DNA of 64,000 nucleotides, from the NCBI RefSeq assembly GCF_055900595.2, contig NZ_CM148325.1. One strand, given 5' to 3'. Made by a program: the position numbers and the translations under genes. Positions 10,121 to 38,353 of this stretch are shown here, piece after piece; position 1 is the first letter of the stretch, and each line of letters begins with the position of its first letter. The notes under the pieces were generated by a model. It was given only the letters and a program-made list of their open reading frames with translations. It was not told where the DNA came from and did no database searches.

Positions 10121-10238
10121 TGTTCATGCCGGATGCGGCGTGAACGCCTTATCCGGCCTACAAGATCGTGCAAATTCAATATATTGCATGAGCCATGTAG
10201 GCCTGATAAGCGTAGAGCATCAGGCAGTTTTGCGTTTG
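10121..10238. repeat. REP/BIME (RIP-like) element: two inverted REP palindromes flanking an AT-rich spacer
   Basis: GCCGGATGCGGCGTGAACGCCTTATCCGGCCTACA ... GTAGGCCTGATAAGCGTAGAGCATCAGGCA; near-identical copy at 41201..41318. Confidence 0.85.
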
Positions 10239-11743: not shown

Positions 11744-14130
<2,387 letters not shown>

Positions 14131-14384
14131 TCATGTTGTGCGATTAAACACCTGCTATTTTAATTTTTGTTACAGAGGCTAAACAGACCGAATCACGGCG
14201 ACGAGAAAACGAGAAGTTACTGGCTGGCGAAGGATTATGTGGTGAAATAAAAAGGCCGTTGGGTTACTCTTCAGGCAGTTAAATGGGCATTTCTACACAG
14301 ATAATGCGATGTTCAGATTCTGTAGACTTATAATGATAGATAATGATCCGTCTACAGCATGACAAACAAAAACAGATGCGTTAC

Positions 14385-14412
14385 GGAACTTTACAAAAAC
14401 GAGACACTCTAA
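14385..14412 (+). promoter_or_regulatory. SigmaE-dependent promoter upstream of rpoE (GGAACTT-N16-TCTAA)
   Basis: Exact match to sigmaE -35 GGAACTT and -10 TCTAA with 16-bp spacer, about 85 bp upstream of rpoE start. Confidence 0.8.
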
Positions 14413-14494
14413 CCCTTTGCTTGCTCAAATTGCAGCTAATGGAGTGGCGTTTCGATAGCGCGTGGAAATTTGGTTTGGGGAGACTTTACCTCGG

Positions 14495-15070
14495 ATGAGC
14501 GAGCAGTTAACGGACCAGGTCCTGGTTGAACGGGTCCAGAAGGGAGATCAGAAAGCCTTTAACTTACTGGTAGTGCGCTATCAGCATAAAGTGGCGAGTC
14601 TGGTTTCCCGCTATGTGCCGTCGGGTGATGTTCCCGATGTGGTACAAGAAGCTTTTATTAAAGCCTATCGTGCGCTGGATTCGTTCCGGGGAGATAGCGC
14701 TTTTTATACATGGCTGTATCGGATTGCTGTAAATACAGCGAAAAATTACCTGGTTGCTCAGGGACGCCGTCCACCTTCCAGTGATGTGGATGCCATTGAA
14801 GCTGAAAACTTCGAAAGTGGCGGCGCGTTGAAAGAAATTTCGAACCCTGAGAACTTAATGTTGTCAGAAGAACTGAGACAGATAGTTTTCCGAACTATTG
14901 AGTCCCTCCCGGAAGATTTACGCATGGCAATAACCTTGCGGGAGCTGGATGGCCTGAGCTATGAAGAGATAGCCGCTATCATGGATTGTCCGGTAGGTAC
15001 GGTGCGTTCACGTATCTTCCGAGCGAGGGAAGCTATTGATAACAAAGTTCAACCGCTTATCAGGCGTTGA
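14495..15070 (+). CDS. rpoE: RNA polymerase sigma factor sigmaE (sigma-24, ECF family)
   Basis: 191 aa; sequence recognised (MSEQLTDQVLVERVQKGDQKAFNLLVVRYQHKV...). Confidence 0.97.
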   Translation: MSEQLTDQVLVERVQKGDQKAFNLLVVRYQHKVASLVSRYVPSGDVPDVVQEAFIKAYRALDSFRGDSAFYTWLYRIAVNTAKNYLVAQGRRPPSSDVDAIEAENFESGGALKEISNPENLMLSEELRQIVFRTIESLPEDLRMAITLRELDGLSYEEIAAIMDCPVGTVRSRIFRAREAIDNKVQPLIRR

Positions 15071-17382: not shown

Positions 17383-19182
<1,800 letters not shown>

Positions 19183-19197
19183 CCCTTAGGAGTTGGC

Positions 19198-20172
19198 ATG
19201 GCGAATATGTTTGCCCTCATTCTGGTGATTGCCACACTGGTGACGGGCATTTTATGGTGCGTGGATAAATTCTTTTTCGCACCTAAGCGACGGGAACGTC
19301 AGGCAGCGGCTCAAGCGGCTGCTGGTGACTCACTGGATAAAGCAACGCTGAAAAAAGTTGCACCGAAGCCAGGTTGGCTGGAAACCGGGGCTTCTGTTTT
19401 TCCAGTGCTGGCTATTGTATTGATTGTGCGTTCGTTTATTTATGAACCGTTCCAGATCCCGTCAGGTTCGATGATGCCGACTCTGTTAATCGGTGACTTT
19501 ATTCTGGTAGAAAAGTTTGCTTACGGCATTAAAGATCCTATCTACCAGAAAACGCTGATCGAAACCGGTCATCCGAAGCGTGGCGATATCGTGGTCTTTA
19601 AATACCCGGAAGATCCAAAGCTTGATTACATCAAGCGTGCGGTGGGTTTACCGGGCGATAAAGTCACTTACGATCCGGTTTCAAAAGAGCTGACGATTCA
19701 GCCGGGATGCAGTTCCGGTCAGGCGTGTGAAAACGCGCTGCCGGTCACCTACTCAAACGTGGAACCGAGCGATTTCGTTCAGACCTTCTCGCGCCGTAAT
19801 GGTGGGGAAGCAACCAGCGGATTCTTTGAAGTGCCGAAAAACGAAACCAAAGAAAATGGAATTCGTCTTTCCGAGCGTAAAGAGACTCTGGGTGATGTGA
19901 CGCACCGTATTTTGACAGTGCCGATTGCGCAGGATCAGGTGGGGATGTATTACCAGCAGCCAGGGCAACAACTGGCAACCTGGATTGTTCCACCGGGCCA
20001 ATACTTCATGATGGGTGACAACCGTGACAACAGCGCGGACAGCCGTTACTGGGGCTTTGTGCCGGAAGCGAATCTGGTAGGTCGGGCAACGGCTATCTGG
20101 ATGAGTTTCGATAAGCAAGAAGGCGAATGGCCGACTGGTGTGCGCTTAAGTCGTATTGGCGGCATCCATTAA
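19198..20172 (+). CDS. lepB: Signal peptidase I (leader peptidase)
   Basis: 324 aa; catalytic Ser region GSMMPTL and Lys region; two N-terminal TM segments. Confidence 0.96.
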   Translation: MANMFALILVIATLVTGILWCVDKFFFAPKRRERQAAAQAAAGDSLDKATLKKVAPKPGWLETGASVFPVLAIVLIVRSFIYEPFQIPSGSMMPTLLIGDFILVEKFAYGIKDPIYQKTLIETGHPKRGDIVVFKYPEDPKLDYIKRAVGLPGDKVTYDPVSKELTIQPGCSSGQACENALPVTYSNVEPSDFVQTFSRRNGGEATSGFFEVPKNETKENGIRLSERKETLGDVTHRILTVPIAQDQVGMYYQQPGQQLATWIVPPGQYFMMGDNRDNSADSRYWGFVPEANLVGRATAIWMSFDKQEGEWPTGVRLSRIGGIH

Positions 20173-20185
20173 TAGCTTATCTTCG

Positions 20186-20220
20186 TTCACGTTGTCGCCG
20201 TTATGGCGACAACGTGAATT
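20186..20220 (+). terminator. Rho-independent terminator after lepB
   Basis: Hairpin TTCACGTTGTCGCC-gtta-TGGCGACAACGTGAA followed by T-rich tract. Confidence 0.7.
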
Positions 20221-20414
20221 ATTTATGAGATAAATCCCCCGTGGCTAACGACATCCCCCGTCGTTGTGTATAGAATATTCCCCCGAAGTTTAAGGTTGGC
20301 ACCTCCAGGTTGCCACGGCACACGAAACAGCGTTGGTCCCCATATACCGGTAAACTGAAACTGCAGCGAAGCAGTTAGCAGAGCCATGTATATCAGGTCT
20401 GTTTCGTGTGCTGA

Positions 20415-22027
<1,613 letters not shown>

Positions 22028-29860: not shown

Positions 29861-32800
29861 ATGATGGAAATTCTGCGTGGTTCGCCTGCATTGTCGGCAT
29901 TCCGAATCAACAAACTGCTGGCACGTTTTCAGGCTGCCAGGCTCCCGGTTCACAATATTTACGCCGAGTATGTCCATTTTGCTGACCTCAATGCGCCGTT
30001 AAACGATGATGAGCACGCACAACTTGAACGCCTGCTGAAATATGGCCCGGCACTCGCCAGCCACGCCCCGCAAGGCAAACTCCTGCTGGTGACTCCGCGT
30101 CCTGGTACCATCTCTCCCTGGTCTTCGAAAGCGACCGATATCGCCCATAACTGCGGGCTGCAACAGGTAAACCGCCTTGAGCGCGGCGTTGCTTACTATA
30201 TAGAAGCCGGTACGCTGACCCATCAACAATGGCAGCAGGTGACCGCTGAACTGCACGACCGCATGATGGAAACGGTCTTTTCTGCTTTAGATGATGCAGA
30301 GCAGCTGTTTGCACACCATCAACCGACTCCGGTCACCAGCGTTGATTTGCTGGGGCAGGGCCGTCAGGCGCTAATCGACGCTAACCTGCGTCTTGGCCTG
30401 GCACTGGCGGAAGATGAAATTGACTATCTGCAGGATGCGTTCACAAAGCTGGGTCGTAACCCGAACGACATCGAGCTGTATATGTTCGCCCAGGCGAATT
30501 CTGAGCACTGCCGCCACAAAATTTTTAACGCCGACTGGATTATCGACGGAGAACAACAGCCGAAATCGCTGTTCAAGATGATCAAAAACACCTTCGAAAC
30601 CACGCCGGATCACGTTCTCTCGGCTTATAAAGATAACGCCGCCGTAATGGAAGGTTCTGAAGTGGGCCGCTACTTTGCTGACCACGAAACGGGCCGCTAC
30701 GATTTCCATCAGGAACCGGCGCACATTCTGATGAAAGTCGAAACCCACAACCACCCAACGGCGATTTCTCCGTGGCCGGGCGCAGCTACCGGTTCCGGCG
30801 GTGAAATTCGCGATGAAGGTGCCACCGGCCGCGGCGCGAAGCCGAAAGCTGGCCTGGTCGGTTTCTCCGTATCCAACCTGCGTATTCCTGGCTTTGAACA
30901 ACCGTGGGAAGAAGATTTCGGTAAGCCTGAGCGCATTGTCACCGCGCTGGACATCATGACAGAAGGTCCGCTGGGCGGCGCGGCATTTAACAACGAATTT
31001 GGTCGTCCGGCACTGAACGGCTACTTCCGTACCTATGAAGAAAAAGTGAACAGCCACAACGGCGAAGAGCTGCGCGGGTATCACAAACCGATCATGCTGG
31101 CGGGTGGGATCGGCAACATTCGCGCCGATCACGTACAAAAAGGTGAGATCAACGTCGGTGCGAAACTGGTCGTTCTCGGCGGCCCGGCAATGAACATCGG
31201 TCTTGGCGGCGGCGCGGCGTCTTCCATGGCGTCTGGTCAGTCTGATGCCGACCTCGACTTTGCTTCCGTACAGCGCGATAACCCGGAGATGGAGCGTCGC
31301 TGTCAGGAAGTGATCGACCGTTGCTGGCAGCTTGGTGATGCTAACCCAATTCTGTTTATCCACGACGTCGGCGCAGGCGGTCTTTCTAACGCGATGCCGG
31401 AACTGGTGAGCGACGGCGGACGCGGCGGTAAATTCGAACTGCGCGATATTCTGAGCGACGAACCGGGCATGAGCCCGCTGGAAATCTGGTGTAACGAATC
31501 CCAGGAACGCTACGTGCTGGCGGTTGCTGCCGATCAGTTACCGCTGTTTGACGAACTGTGTAAGCGTGAACGCGCGCCCTACGCGGTGATTGGTGAAGCG
31601 ACCGAAGAACTGCATCTTTCTCTGCACGATCGTCATTTTGATAATCAGCCGATCGATCTGCCGCTGGACGTCCTGCTTGGTAAAACGCCGAAGATGACCC
31701 GCGATGTGCAAACGCTGAAAGCGAAAGGCGACGCGCTGGCCCGTGAAGGGATCACCATTGCAGACGCGGTGAAACGTGTGCTGCATCTGCCGACTGTGGC
31801 GGAAAAAACCTTCCTGGTGACCATTGGCGACCGCAGCGTAACCGGTATGGTGGCGCGCGATCAGATGGTGGGGCCGTGGCAGGTGCCGGTCGCTAACTGC
31901 GCGGTCACTACCGCCAGCCTCGACAGCTACTACGGCGAAGCGATGGCAATTGGCGAACGTGCGCCGGTTGCACTGCTGGATTTCGCCGCCTCTGCCCGTC
32001 TGGCGGTCGGTGAAGCGTTAACCAATATTGCCGCAACGCAGATTGGCGATATCAAACGCATTAAACTTTCCGCCAACTGGATGGCGGCGGCAGGCCACCC
32101 TGGTGAAGATGCAGGCCTGTATGAAGCCGTTAAAGCGGTGGGCGAAGAGCTTTGTCCGGCGCTGGGCCTGACGATTCCGGTGGGTAAAGACTCCATGTCG
32201 ATGAAAACCCGCTGGCAGGAAGGTAGCGAAGAGCGCGAAATGACCTCGCCGCTTTCGCTGGTGATTTCTGCATTTGCCCGCGTGGAAGATGTACGTCACA
32301 CCATCACGCCGCAGCTTTCTACCGAAGATAACGCACTGCTGCTGATTGATTTAGGCAAAGGCAATAACGCGCTGGGCGCAACGGCGCTGGCGCAGGTTTA
32401 TCGTCAGCTTGGCGACAAACCGGCAGATGTACGCGATGTCGCGCAACTGAAAGGCTTCTATGACGCGGTTCAGGCGCTGGTAGCACAGCGTAAGCTGCTC
32501 GCGTACCACGACCGCTCTGATGGCGGCCTGCTGGTAACGCTGGCGGAAATGGCCTTTGCTGGTCATTGCGGCATTGACGCGGATATCGCCACTCTGGGTG
32601 ACGATCGCCTGGCGGCGTTGTTTAACGAAGAACTGGGTGCGGTGATTCAGGTTCGAGCCGCTGACCGTAAAGCAGTTGAAGCGGTACTGGCACAGCATGG
32701 GCTTGCTGATTGCGTCCATTATGTTGGCCAGGCGGTTTCCGGTGACCGTTTTGTGATTACCGCCAACGGGCAGACTGTATTCAGCGAAAGCCGCACTACG

Positions 32801-33748
32801 TTGCGTGTCTGGTGGGCAGAAACTACCTGGCAGATGCAGCGCCTGCGTGACAATCCGGAGTGTGCCGATCAGGAACATCAGGCGAAATCTAACGACGCCG
32901 ATCCGGGCCTGAATGTGAAACTGTCGTTTGATATCAACGAAGATGTGGCAGCACCGTATATTGCCACTGGTGCGCGTCCGAAAGTTGCCGTGCTGCGTGA
33001 GCAGGGGGTGAACTCGCATGTTGAAATGGCGGCAGCTTTCCACCGTGCAGGCTTCGATGCAATCGATGTGCATATGAGCGACCTGCTGGCTGGACGCACG
33101 GGCCTGGAGGATTTCCACGCTCTGGTAGCGTGCGGCGGTTTCTCCTACGGTGATGTGCTGGGTGCTGGTGAAGGTTGGGCGAAGTCTATCCTGTTCAATG
33201 ACCGTGTACGCGATGAGTTTGCAACCTTCTTCCACCGTCCGCAAACGCTGGCGCTGGGGGTATGTAACGGTTGCCAGATGATGTCTAACCTACGTGAACT
33301 GATCCCAGGTAGCGAGTTGTGGCCACGTTTCGTGCGTAACACCTCCGATCGCTTTGAAGCGCGTTTCAGCCTGGTAGAAGTGACACAAAGCCCGTCGCTG
33401 CTGTTGCAAGGGATGGTGGGTTCGCAGATGCCGATTGCTGTCTCTCACGGCGAAGGACGCGTGGAAGTGCGCGATGCGGCGCATCTGGCGGCACTGGAAA
33501 GCAAAGGGCTGGTGGCACTGCGCTATGTCGATAACTTCGGCAAAGTCACTGAAACCTACCCGGCTAACCCGAACGGTTCTCCGAATGGTATTACGGCGGT
33601 CACGACTGAAAATGGTCGAGTCACCATTATGATGCCGCACCCGGAACGTGTTTTCCGTACTGTCAGTAACTCCTGGCATCCGGAAAACTGGGGCGAGGAT
33701 GGCCCATGGATGCGTATTTTCCGCAATGCGCGTAAGCAGTTGGGGTAA
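29861..33748 (+). CDS. purL: Phosphoribosylformylglycinamidine synthase (FGAM synthase, large single-chain form)
   Basis: 1295 aa; C-terminal glutamine amidotransferase domain with catalytic Cys (GVCNGCQ). Confidence 0.97.
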
Positions 33749-33825
33749 GTCGTCAAGCTATTGGTTTTGCTGCCTGGCTGTGGCATTCACGCCGCATCCG
33801 GCATTAAACGCCAACCACTATCATA

Positions 33826-33851
33826 AGCTCCCAGCTCCGGGAGCTTTTTTT
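33826..33851 (+). terminator. Rho-independent terminator after purL
   Basis: Hairpin AGCTCCC-n-GGGAGCT followed by T7. Confidence 0.75.
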
Positions 33852-33852
33852 G

Positions 33853-33966
33853 TGTCTGTAAATCACGACAATGGGTGGTTTACCGTGTCGCTTTTTGACG
33901 ACATTTTATTGATTGATTTTATTGTAATTTAATAAGTTTATCTTAAGTTGTCTCTTTTTGGCGACA
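33853..33966 (+). promoter_or_regulatory. Three GlrR (QseF) activator sites TGTC-N10-GACA upstream of glmY (33853..33870, 33886..33903, 33949..33966)
   Basis: Three exact TGTC-N10-GACA motifs upstream of a sigma54 promoter. Confidence 0.8.
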
Positions 33967-34055
33967 CAATGGCTGATTTACAGCCAAATAGCGAAGAAGT
34001 CATTAACCCATCAAAACAACGTATAATCAGTACGTTACCAAACTATTTTATTTAT

Positions 34056-34071
34056 TGGCACAGTTACTGCA
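34056..34071 (+). promoter_or_regulatory. Sigma54 promoter of glmY (TGGCAC-N5-CTGCA)
   Basis: -24 GG / -12 GC elements with canonical spacing immediately upstream of the glmY 5' end. Confidence 0.8.
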
Positions 34072-34082
34072 TAATAGTCATC

Positions 34083-34268
34083 AGTGGCTCATTCACCGAC
34101 TTATGTCAGCCCCTTCGGGACGTGCTACATAAAATTCGAATGACGCACAACAAGGTGCCTGCCGTCCAACTTCTGATATCAGCTTAGCTATATCAACCCT
34201 CGGGCGAAACGTCGAGTTAGGCACCGCCTTATTCCATAACAAAGCCGGGTTATTCCCGGCTTTGTTGT
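34083..34268 (+). ncRNA. glmY: Small RNA GlmY (controls GlmZ/glmS via RapZ)
   Basis: Sequence recognised (AGUGGCUCAUUCACCGACUUAUGUCAGCCCCUUCGGGAC...); ends in terminator AAAGCCGGG-n-CCCGGCUUUGUUGU; lies between purL and glrK. Confidence 0.85.
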
Positions 34269-34324
34269 ATCTGAACTTCCCCTCGGTTAGCATCAGGCTA
34301 TTCGCGTCTGACGAGAGTAACACC

Positions 34325-35752
34325 TTGAAACGCTGGCCCGTTTTTCCCCGCTCATTACGACAACTGGTAATGCTGGCATTTTTGCTGATTCTGCTACCCC
34401 TGTTGGTGCTGGCATGGCAAGCCTGGCAAAGCCTGAATGCGCTTAGCGATCAGGCGGCGCTGGTTAACCGCACTACGCTTATTGATGCCCGGCGCAGTGA
34501 AGCGATGACCAACGCGGCGCTGGAGATGGAGCGTAGCTACCGTCAGTATTGCGTGCTGGACGACCCAACTCTGGCGAAGGTTTATCAAAGCCAGCGCAAG
34601 CGTTACAGCGAAATGCTCGATGCCCACGCAGGCGTACTGCCGGACGATAAACTTTACCAGGCATTGCGTCAGGATTTGAACAATCTGGCTCAACTTCAGT
34701 GTAACAACAGCGGTCCCGATGCTGCTGCCGCCGCGCGTCTGGAAGCCTTTGCCAGTGCCAATACCGAAATGGTACAGGCCACGCGCACAGTGGTGTTCTC
34801 TCGCGGACAGCAGCTTCAGCGTGAAATCGCCGAACGTGGGCAATATTTTGGTTGGCAATCGCTGGTGTTATTTCTGGTAAGTCTGGTGATGGTACTGCTC
34901 TTCACGCGGATGATTATCGGCCCGGTGAAAAATATTGAACGGATGATCAACCGTCTGGGGGAAGGGCGTTCTCTGGGCAATAGCGTTTCGTTCAGTGGAC
35001 CGAGTGAGTTACGCTCGGTTGGGCAACGTATTCTCTGGTTAAGCGAACGCCTGTCATGGCTGGAATCCCAGCGCCATCAATTTTTAAGACATTTATCTCA
35101 TGAATTAAAAACGCCGCTGGCGAGTATGCGCGAGGGCACTGAATTACTGGCTGACCAGGTTGTCGGGCCGCTTACGCCCGAGCAAAAAGAGGTGGTGAGC
35201 ATCCTTGATAGCAGCAGCCGCAATTTGCAAAAACTGATCGAACAACTGCTTGATTACAACCGTAAACAGGCGGACGGCGCGGTGGAACTGGAGAGTGTAG
35301 AGCTGGCACCGCTGGTGGAAATGGTGGTTTCTGCTCATAGCCTGCCCGCACGGGCTAAAATGATGCATACCGACGTCGATCTCAAAGCAACTGTTTGCCT
35401 GGCGGAGCCAATGCTGCTGATGAGCGTACTGGATAATCTTTACTCCAATGCGGTGCACTACGGGGCTGAATCCGGTAACATTTGCCTTCGCAGCAGTTTA
35501 CATGGCGCGCGGGTTTATATTGATGTCATCAATACAGGCACACCCATTCCGCAAGAGGAACGCGCCATGATCTTCGAACCCTTTTTTCAGGGAAGCCACC
35601 AGCGAAAAGGGGCGGTGAAGGGCAGCGGTCTGGGATTAAGCATTGCCAGGGATTGTATTCGCCGTATGCAGGGGGAACTGTATCTGGTCGACGAGAGCGG
35701 GCAAGAGGTTTGCTTCCGCATTGAATTACCGTCGTCGAAAAACACGAAATAA
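34325..35752 (+). CDS. glrK: Sensor histidine kinase GlrK (QseE/YfhK)
   Basis: 475 aa if started at TTG 34325 (MKRWPVFPRSL...); H-box HELKTPL; HATPase domain. Confidence 0.88.
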   Translation: MKRWPVFPRSLRQLVMLAFLLILLPLLVLAWQAWQSLNALSDQAALVNRTTLIDARRSEAMTNAALEMERSYRQYCVLDDPTLAKVYQSQRKRYSEMLDAHAGVLPDDKLYQALRQDLNNLAQLQCNNSGPDAAAAARLEAFASANTEMVQATRTVVFSRGQQLQREIAERGQYFGWQSLVLFLVSLVMVLLFTRMIIGPVKNIERMINRLGEGRSLGNSVSFSGPSELRSVGQRILWLSERLSWLESQRHQFLRHLSHELKTPLASMREGTELLADQVVGPLTPEQKEVVSILDSSSRNLQKLIEQLLDYNRKQADGAVELESVELAPLVEMVVSAHSLPARAKMMHTDVDLKATVCLAEPMLLMSVLDNLYSNAVHYGAESGNICLRSSLHGARVYIDVINTGTPIPQEERAMIFEPFFQGSHQRKGAVKGSGLGLSIARDCIRRMQGELYLVDESGQEVCFRIELPSSKNTK

Positions 35753-35916: not shown

Positions 35917-36630
35917 ATGCGACACATTTTTCAACGATTATTGCCCCGACGGCTATGGCTGGCAGGGCTGCCATGTCTGGCATTGCTGGGTTGCGTGCAG
36001 AGTCACAATAAGCCAGCTATTGATACGCCAGCAGAAGAAAAAATTCCGGTTTATCAACTGGCTGACTATCTTTCTACTGAATGTAGCGACATCTGGGCAC
36101 TGCAAGGTAAGTCAACCGAAACCAATCCGCTTTACTGGCTGCGGGCGATGGATTGTGCTGATCGTTTAATGCCTGCGCAGTCGCGGCAGCAAGCCCGCCA
36201 ATATGACGACGGCAGCTGGCAAAATACCTTCAAACAAGGGATTTTGCTCGCCGACGCCAAAATTACGCCTTATGAGCGCCGCCAGCTGGTCGCGCGCATT
36301 GATGCGTTAAGTACCGAGATCCCGGCACAGGTTCGCCCACTGTATCAACTCTGGCGCGACGGTCAGGCGCTGCAACTGCAACTGGCGGAAGAGCGCCAAC
36401 GCTACAGCAAACTCCAGCAGTCCAGCGACAGCGAACTGGATACTTTGCGCCAGCAACATCACGTTCTACAGCAGCAACTGGAGCTCACCACCCGCAAGCT
36501 GGAAAATCTGACCGATATTGAACGTCAGCTCTCTACCCGCAAACCGGCTGGCAATTTCTCGCCGGATACGCCGCACGAGAGTGAAAAGCCCGCGCCATCT
36601 ACCCATGAGGTCACTCCTGATGAGCCATAA
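35917..36630 (+). CDS. qseG: Lipoprotein QseG (YfhG/GlrP), accessory to the GlrK-GlrR system
   Basis: 237 aa; signal peptide with lipobox LLGC; Gln-rich coiled-coil region; 11-bp overlap with glrR. Confidence 0.85.
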   Translation: MRHIFQRLLPRRLWLAGLPCLALLGCVQSHNKPAIDTPAEEKIPVYQLADYLSTECSDIWALQGKSTETNPLYWLRAMDCADRLMPAQSRQQARQYDDGSWQNTFKQGILLADAKITPYERRQLVARIDALSTEIPAQVRPLYQLWRDGQALQLQLAEERQRYSKLQQSSDSELDTLRQQHHVLQQQLELTTRKLENLTDIERQLSTRKPAGNFSPDTPHESEKPAPSTHEVTPDEP

Positions 36631-37954
36631 ACCTGCGCATTTATTACTGGTCGATGACGATCCAGGATTGCTGAAACTGCTTGGTCTGCGTCTGACCAGC
36701 GAAGGTTATAGCGTGGTTACGGCGGAAAGTGGAGCTGAAGGATTGCGGATACTGAATCGTGAAAAAGTAGATTTAGTCATCAGCGATCTGCGGATGGATG
36801 AAATGGATGGTATGCAACTGTTTGCCGAAATCCAGAAAGTGCAGCCAGGTATGCCAGTAATCATCCTCACCGCGCATGGTTCCATTCCCGATGCCGTTGC
36901 CGCGACACAGCAGGGCGTGTTCAGTTTCCTCACCAAGCCTGTCGATAAAGACGCGCTGTATCAGGCAATTGACGATGCGCTGGAGCAATCAGCCCCCACT
37001 ACCGACGAACGCTGGCGCGAGGCGATTGTCACCCGCAGCCCGCTGATGCTGCGTTTGCTGGAACAGGCGAGGCTGGTGGCGCAGTCAGATGTTAGCGTTT
37101 TGATTAACGGTCAGAGCGGTACCGGGAAAGAGATTTTTGCCCAGGCGATCCACAACGCCAGCCCGCGCAACAGCAAACCGTTTATTGCTATTAACTGTGG
37201 CGCATTGCCCGAGCAATTGCTGGAGTCAGAGCTGTTTGGTCATGCGCGTGGCGCGTTTACTGGCGCTGTCAGCAATCGTGAAGGTTTATTCCAGGCGGCG
37301 GAAGGCGGTACGCTGTTTCTCGATGAGATTGGCGACATGCCCGCACCGTTGCAGGTCAAACTGCTACGCGTGTTGCAGGAGCGCAAAGTGCGCCCGCTGG
37401 GCAGCAACCGCGATATTGATATCGACGTGCGGATTATTTCCGCCACTCACCGTGACCTGCCAAAGGCGATGGCGCGCGGGGAATTCCGTGAAGATCTCTA
37501 CTATCGCCTCAACGTTGTCAGTCTGAAAATTCCGGCATTGGCGGAGCGCACAGAAGACATTCCGCTACTGGCAAACCACTTATTGCGCCAGGCGGCAGAG
37601 CGACATAAACCGTTTGTCCGCGCATTCTCCACCGATGCAATGAAACGACTGATGACCGCGAGCTGGCCGGGTAATGTGCGCCAGTTGGTCAACGTGATTG
37701 AACAGTGCGTGGCGCTAACATCATCTCCGGTGATTAGTGATGCGTTAGTCGAGCAGGCGCTGGAGGGCGAAAATACGGCTCTGCCAACCTTTGTTGAGGC
37801 GCGTAATCAGTTTGAACTCAACTACTTGCGTAAGCTGCTGCAAATCACCAAAGGGAATGTCACCCACGCGGCGAGAATGGCGGGGCGCAACCGGACAGAA
37901 TTTTATAAACTGCTTTCCCGACACGAGCTGGATGCAAACGATTTCAAGGAATGA
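36620..37954 (+). CDS. glrR: Sigma54-dependent response regulator GlrR (QseF/YfhA)
   Basis: 444 aa; receiver domain, AAA+ sigma54-interaction domain ([15 protein letters not shown]), C-terminal HTH. Confidence 0.93.

Positions 37955-37978: not shown

Positions 37979-38353
<375 letters not shown>

Follow-up and report, generated by a model that had tools for sequence, protein, structure and literature searches.

GlmY controls glucosamine-6-phosphate synthase, and with it the supply of cell-envelope precursors, through RapZ and GlmZ, and is tied to EHEC virulence regulation. In the glmY architecture characterised experimentally in E. coli, a sigma-54 promoter and IHF sites are joined by three TGTCN10GACA sites that lie over 100 bp ahead of the start (PMC3045617), and in the E. 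coli glmY control region the IHF-like sites lie on either side of the GlrR binding site ABS3 (PMC3045617). K-12 glmY (b4441; formerly tke1/sroF) is described as having a promoter dependent on GlrR, IHF and sigma-54 (Reichenbach 2009 as cited in PMC3045617; Gopel 2011, PMC3045617), and the dependence of glmY transcription on GlrR, RpoN and IHF has been shown in K-12 (PMC3045617). The hexamer CATAAT has been characterised as the -10 element of a weak sigma-70 promoter, which has its start site in common with the sigma-54 promoter and overlaps it (PMC3045617). GlmY is 184 nt long as a primary transcript and 148 nt long when processed (PMC4152352), and the promoter of glrK-qseG-glrR in K-12 has its start site 25 bp before the glrK start codon (PMC6075780). 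The glmY/glmZ promoters of Salmonella, Yersinia and other Enterobacterales (PMC3045617) and the Proteus mirabilis glmY-qseEGF operon (PMC8745638) have in common with the locus described here three GlrR boxes, two IHF-type sites, a sigma-54 promoter and synteny with the two-component system.

We find that the 64-kb window, by which we mean the whole stretch of DNA analysed, almost certainly contains the canonical glmY locus of Escherichia, to which the transcription and RNA mechanism is ascribed by homology to K-12. A glmY module with its enhancer is an ordinary, already-known, textbook system. The genes lie in the order purL, glmY, glrK, qseG, glrR, glnB and are collinear with K-12, and the purL-glnB locus is 95.6% identical to that of K-12 over 9.5 kb; rpoN, ihfA/B, rapZ and glmZ lie outside the 64-kb window. 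The window and K-12 have the same gene order, box positions, sigma-54 promoter at -27, CATAAT hexamer, proximal IHF site and 184-nt RNA, but from ABS1 to the promoter they differ by about 23 substitutions, which fall in spacers and N10 segments, and the distal IHF site of the window has one mismatch. The features of the locus are as follows.

29861-33748: purL coding sequence (NCBIfam equivalog cut-off reached)
33825-33852, plus strand: intrinsic terminator of purL (hairpin at 33825-33846 and T-run; from a terminator scan)
33853-33870: GlrR (QseF) binding site ABS1, TGTCTGTAAATCACGACA, at -230 from GlmY +1; exact TGTC-N10-GACA, identical in K-12
33886-33903: GlrR binding site ABS2, TGTCGCTTTTTGACGACA, at -197; exact TGTC-N10-GACA
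33906-33918, minus strand: distal IHF-type site, AATCAATCAATAA, between ABS2 and ABS3, at -177; one mismatch to WATCARNNNNTTR
33949-33966: GlrR binding site ABS3, TGTCTCTTTTTGGCGACA, at -134; exact TGTC-N10-GACA
34025-34037, plus strand: proximal IHF-type site, AATCAGTACGTTA, at -58; perfect match to WATCARNNNNTTR, identical in K-12
34056-34071, plus strand: sigma-54 promoter TGGCAC-N5-CTGCA, with the -24 GG at 34057-34058 and the -12 GC at 34069-34070; identical in K-12
34070-34075, plus strand: sigma-70 -10 hexamer CATAAT, overlapping the sigma-54 -12 element; identical in K-12
34083-34266, plus strand: glmY, predicted primary transcript of 184 nt (Rfam match and alignment to K-12 b4441)
34083-34230, plus strand: GlmY nt 1-148, the predicted processed, active form (the Rfam match spans exactly 148 nt)
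34238-34266, plus strand: GlmY terminator hairpin (RNA fold)
34267-34324, plus strand: glmY-glrK spacer of 58 bp, 100% identical to K-12, carrying a separate putative sigma-70 promoter for glrK-qseG-glrR
34325-35752, plus strand: glrK (qseE), sensor histidine kinase of 475 aa with a TTG start; 96.8% nucleotide identity to K-12, no gaps
35917-36630, plus strand: qseG, outer-membrane lipoprotein needed for GlrK/GlrR activity (NF007997, 358.9 bits, cut-off 234)
36620-37954, plus strand: glrR (qseF), sigma-54-dependent response regulator for the three ABS (NF011695, 980.6 bits, cut-off 763)
38015-38353: glnB (NCBIfam equivalog cut-off exceeded)

An earlier note on this DNA, made from the letters alone, had described three exact TGTC-N10-GACA sites, a TGGCAC-N5-CTGCA sigma-54 promoter and a GlmY RNA of about 186 nt with its terminator, encoded next to its own two-component activator, as a system well established in E. 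coli. Each of these elements was found where the note had placed it: the three boxes were recovered by pattern scan, the promoter could be read in the sequence, and the neighbouring activator genes were identified by NCBIfam equivalog cut-offs in the case of qseG and glrR and by identity to K-12 glrK in the third. The architecture fits the experimentally characterised one (PMC3045617), and the alignment to the K-12 glmY locus that the note had proposed gave a collinear locus nearly identical to the curated one. Two points needed amendment. The list of elements was incomplete, as it had neither the IHF sites nor the sigma-70 promoter that overlaps the sigma-54 one, nor a promoter for glrK itself; and, while the RNA and its terminator hairpin stood, the length did not, being 184 nt by alignment to K-12 b4441.

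The identity of the RNA is given by its covariance-model score, its sequence and its position. In the Rfam search that had been named as a check, RF00128 (GlmY_tke1) matched 34083-34230 with 145.3 bits against a gathering score of 33 (E 2.3e-32), covering the full model (positions 1-163 of 163), and is the best family of clan CL00011 here (cmscan keeps the best per clan). The ends of the RNA were taken from an alignment of the purL-glrK gap to K-12, in which b4441 is a curated 184-nt ncRNA between purL and glrK; GlmY lies between purL and glrK (qseE) in the window, and both K-12 and the genome that is identical to the window show this order. The two RNAs are 97.8% identical, with 4 substitutions in 184 nt (nt 54, 102, 117 and 169), none of them at a paired position, and both structure and energy are predicted to be those of K-12. 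GlmY is predicted to fold into two 5' stem-loops (SL1 and SL2), a single-stranded stretch and the terminator hairpin, with a minimum free energy of -64.2 kcal/mol (z = -5.5). An RNAalifold consensus of 47 sequences, among the matches listed, kept both SL1 and SL2, with compensatory changes in 6 of 28 pairs; only these 28 pairs were recovered because the MAFFT alignment of the RNA is poor in apical SL2 and in the terminator. Owing to an interruption in its T-run (GTTGTATCT), the GlmY terminator escaped a terminator scan of the window and was assigned by homology. By homology, the lengths fit trimming from 184 to 148 nt.

The control region of glmY is bounded upstream by the purL terminator, whose T-run directly adjoins ABS1. 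Compared with K-12, the window has an insertion of 18 nt (33779-33796) close behind the purL stop, which completes a REP-like palindrome (GCCGCATCCGGCA...).

The three boxes are the only exact TGTC-N10-GACA sites in the 64-kb window, and all lie more than 100 bp upstream of +1, as do the three activator sites in the definition of the glmY promoter (PMC3045617). The number of boxes alone says little, as 3 were found against 0.79 expected and 5 of 100 shuffles reach 3. Similarly, the sigma-54 pattern is not above chance, with 2 matches at no more than one mismatch against 2.15 expected in the window. These counts alone are unconvincing; it is the clustering, position and conservation of the motifs that carry the case for the module. 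Three boxes within 114 bp would be expected only ∼3e-5 times over the whole window (Poisson estimate), which is the strong part of the evidence. The sigma-54 promoter (TGGCACAGTTACTGCA), which has one mismatch to the TGGCAC-N5-TTGCA-type consensus, starts at -27 from the GlmY 5' end, with 11 bp between promoter and RNA, and places +1 at 34083. Relative to K-12, ABS2 differs at 2 positions of the N10 with both half-sites intact.

Of the two IHF-type sites, which lie around ABS3, the proximal one is perfect and the distal one has one mismatch. At the distal position K-12 matches the consensus perfectly (AATCAATGAGTTA), as do 27 of 45 species, and 16 of the 45 have one mismatch, both counts being among the matches listed. 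In the lineage of the window the mismatch is a change of TT to TA, with a TTGATTGATT repeat.

The CATAAT hexamer points to the second, weak promoter of the K-12 locus, but no consensus -35 is present and a sigma-70 consensus scan found no promoter, in keeping with a weak promoter whose -35 is poor. The sigma-70 component of glmY expression is thus a proposal made by homology, and position 34050, in the putative -35 region, is changed from C to A relative to K-12.

To compare the locus across species, we used a pattern scan with GCTCATTCACCNNNNTATG and one genome per species, which gave at least 120 loci; about 60% of 120 came from unrelated phyla and were matches by chance. A filter for a sigma-54 promoter together with one or more boxes left 48 Enterobacterales loci among the matches listed, of which 45 were compared. 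Such a filter introduces a bias in favour of the very architecture being examined, and the purL/glrK synteny was checked independently afterwards: among the matches listed, the order purL-glmY-glrK-qseG-glrR was kept in the 45-species set wherever the flank sufficed. In the same set, again among the matches listed, the sigma-54 promoter starts at -27 in nearly all 45 species, and the boxes stand at -230, -197 and -134 in Escherichia, Citrobacter, Enterobacter and related genera. Yersinia, Serratia, Rahnella and related genera differ from the window in two ways: among the matches listed, their boxes are shifted upstream by 15-20 bp, and they lack a conserved CATAAT, which would make expression there strictly sigma-54-dependent.

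An alignment of the 250 bp upstream of glmY in 47 sequences, among the matches listed, gave a footprint in which half-sites are 84-99% conserved, IHF cores form islands and spacers are 35-50% conserved. The peaks coincide, among the matches listed, with the half-sites, the IHF sites and the -24/-12 elements, and both IHF-type sites of the window fall on such islands. Considered box by box, and among the matches listed, half-site conservation in the 47 sequences is 93-96% for ABS1, which occupies the same position in many genera, 98-99% for ABS2 and 84-96% for ABS3. Most other genera among the matches listed have ABS3 with one mismatch, as had been remarked (PMC3045617), while in the window all three boxes are exact. 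For the promoters, conservation in the 47 sequences among the matches listed is 97% for TGGCAC, 87% for the -12 element and 81% for CATAAT.

Within Escherichia, the ∼260 bp upstream of glmY in Escherichia albertii NBRC 107761 have an identity of only about 48% with either the window or K-12. Its boxes are all degenerate (TGTC-N10-GACG twice and AGTC-N10-GACG) and its -24 element reads TGGCAT; its GlmY itself is 93-95% identical.

The locus of the window is itself uncommon. Of about 5,425 complete "E. coli" genomes, only 8 are 100% identical to it in the purL-glrK gap (33749-34324), and 5,371 have an identity of 90-95% there; lepA-lepB-rnc (window 18000-21000), about 14 kb away, is matched perfectly by these 8 genomes and no others. 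Because the 8 identical genomes coincide at two places and the locus has diverged from K-12 to the extent given above, the window, judged by its sequence, belongs to a lineage of Escherichia that is rare and deep-branching, and that may be a cryptic clade going under the name E. coli. The divergence from K-12 is concentrated in the spacers of the control region, which is 88-90% identical upstream of the promoter compared to 97.8% for GlmY. The comparison of this divergent lineage with K-12 is therefore a natural footprint, in which the motifs are kept (the distal IHF site with one mismatch) and the spacers drift. The GTDB species representative labelled E. coli SCPM-O-B-8794 (NZ_JAATUR010000003.1) has a glrK only about 93% identical to both K-12 and the window and an E. 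albertii-like GlmY; it probably represents a different Escherichia species under the E. coli label.

A functional alteration of the module in the rare lineage would mean that changes in the enhancer region alter how much of glmY expression depends on sigma-54 and how much on sigma-70. The candidates are the distal IHF site, perfect in K-12 and most of the species compared among the matches listed and changed from TT to TA here, the two changes in the ABS2 spacer and the C to A change at 34050; they lie in a control region that has diverged more than the RNA, in an allele found exactly in only the 8 genomes. However, the half-sites, the proximal IHF site, the -24/-12 elements and CATAAT are all intact, the spacing (-230/-197/-134/-27) is unchanged, the changed positions vary freely between species, and the one-mismatch distal IHF site is tolerated in 16 of the 45 species among the matches listed. 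We consider such an alteration unlikely, and slightly less likely still that the changes in the distal IHF site, the ABS2 spacer and 34050 measurably re-tune GlrR/sigma-54-driven against basal sigma-70 expression of glmY; if they did, the locus would be a natural variant of an envelope-homeostasis circuit. Because of the distal IHF mismatch and the 88-90% identity of the control region, quantitative behaviour could nonetheless differ from that of K-12. The canonical glmY locus remains our reading.

The RNA might also be GlmZ, the paralogue that base-pairs with glmS, and not the decoy GlmY. The two RNAs belong to one Rfam clan (CL00011), with a homologous fold and a similar 5' end, and both bind RapZ; moreover, in many Enterobacterales glmZ has a sigma-54 promoter and GlrR boxes (PMC3045617), and three of the scanned loci, from Hafnia and Budvicia, have no downstream glrK and may be glmZ. 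GlmZ (Rfam GlmZ_SraJ) differs in carrying the glmS-pairing region and in being encoded elsewhere in the genome, and in Escherichia it has a plain sigma-70 promoter only, with no GlrR or IHF sites (PMC3045617). Since the best clan family in the window is GlmY_tke1 (145 bits), the RNA is 97.8% identical to annotated K-12 glmY, and it sits between purL and glrK, the conserved glmY position, we rejected a GlmZ identity on score, identity and position, and regard it as exceedingly improbable.

At the loci of Hafnia paralvei and of two Budvicia, GlrR-type boxes and a sigma-54 promoter at -29/-30 accompany a GlmY-like 5' end. With purL and glrK absent from the examined flank, they are probably glmZ, or glmY in another gene order.

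Finally, it is scarcely credible that either of the two overlapping ORFs in the mechanical ORF list, 33948-34187 (plus strand, 79 aa) and 34093-34323 (minus strand, 76 aa), encodes a real small protein with the RNA resemblance being secondary, and we rejected this reading, in agreement with the earlier note, which had called both spurious: although both frames are open in the window and in K-12, codon changes relative to K-12 are 9 non-synonymous and 7 synonymous in the plus-strand ORF and 4 and 0 in the minus-strand ORF, compared to 6 and 36 in the real glrK next door, the plus frame is equally open in only 4 of 45 species (among the matches listed), the plus ORF begins within ABS3 and crosses an IHF site and the promoter, and conservation tracks RNA stems and protein-binding motifs, not codons.

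With the RNA read as GlmY, the mechanism established in K-12 (PMC3045617, PMC6075780, PMC4152352) can be laid over the locus. By homology, GlrK, together with the lipoprotein QseG, would phosphorylate GlrR, and GlrR-P would bind the three enhancer boxes at -230, -197 and -134. IHF at the two flanking sites would bend the DNA such that GlrR contacts sigma-54 RNA polymerase at TGGCAC-N5-CTGCA, and the activated polymerase would start transcription at 34083, while the weak sigma-70 promoter would give basal transcription from the same start site. The 184-nt transcript would end at the hairpin at 34238-34266 and then be trimmed to 148 nt; the trimmed GlmY would mimic GlmZ and sequester the RNase E adaptor RapZ, and the spared GlmZ would activate glmS translation when glucosamine-6-phosphate is scarce. 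The dependence on GlrR, RpoN and IHF is inferred for the allele of the window from that of K-12.

The activator genes would be transcribed from their own promoter in the 58-bp spacer after glmY, with a start at about 34300, a position carried over from K-12. The true start of glrK is the TTG at 34325, not the mechanical ORF start at 34262. In NCBIfam, glrK had only generic histidine-kinase matches, below cut-off, and it is annotated as QseE/GlrK in the genome identical to the window. Further downstream, glrR and glnB are 93.7% and 94.1% identical to K-12, respectively.

The RefSeq record identical to the window has no feature in the 576-bp purL-glrK gap. The small RNA module is thus left blank by ORF-based and PGAP annotation, hidden under spurious ORFs; its main value is as an example of such a gap, and beyond the quality of annotation it is of little consequence.

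The other reported sigma-54 target of GlrR/QseF in K-12 is rpoE P2 (PMC6075780, PMC6358824), and rpoE lies in the same window at 14495-15070, about 19 kb upstream of glmY. In the region upstream of rpoE (14113-14494) we found no exact TGTC-N10-GACA site and no sigma-54 match at up to 2 mismatches. A sigmaE-type promoter, GGAACTT-N16-TCTAA, is visible upstream of rpoE at about 14386-14412.

Elsewhere in the window, Rfam matches were obtained for five further elements.

10162-10204, plus strand: ES036/CssrF, above the gathering score
16670-17501, minus strand: AsrC (antisense of rseC), above the gathering score at 502 bits, internally deleted compared with the model
20285-20499, plus strand: rncO, above the gathering score
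24031-24107, minus strand: ohsC, above the gathering score
63785-63894, plus strand: iscRS stability element, above the gathering score
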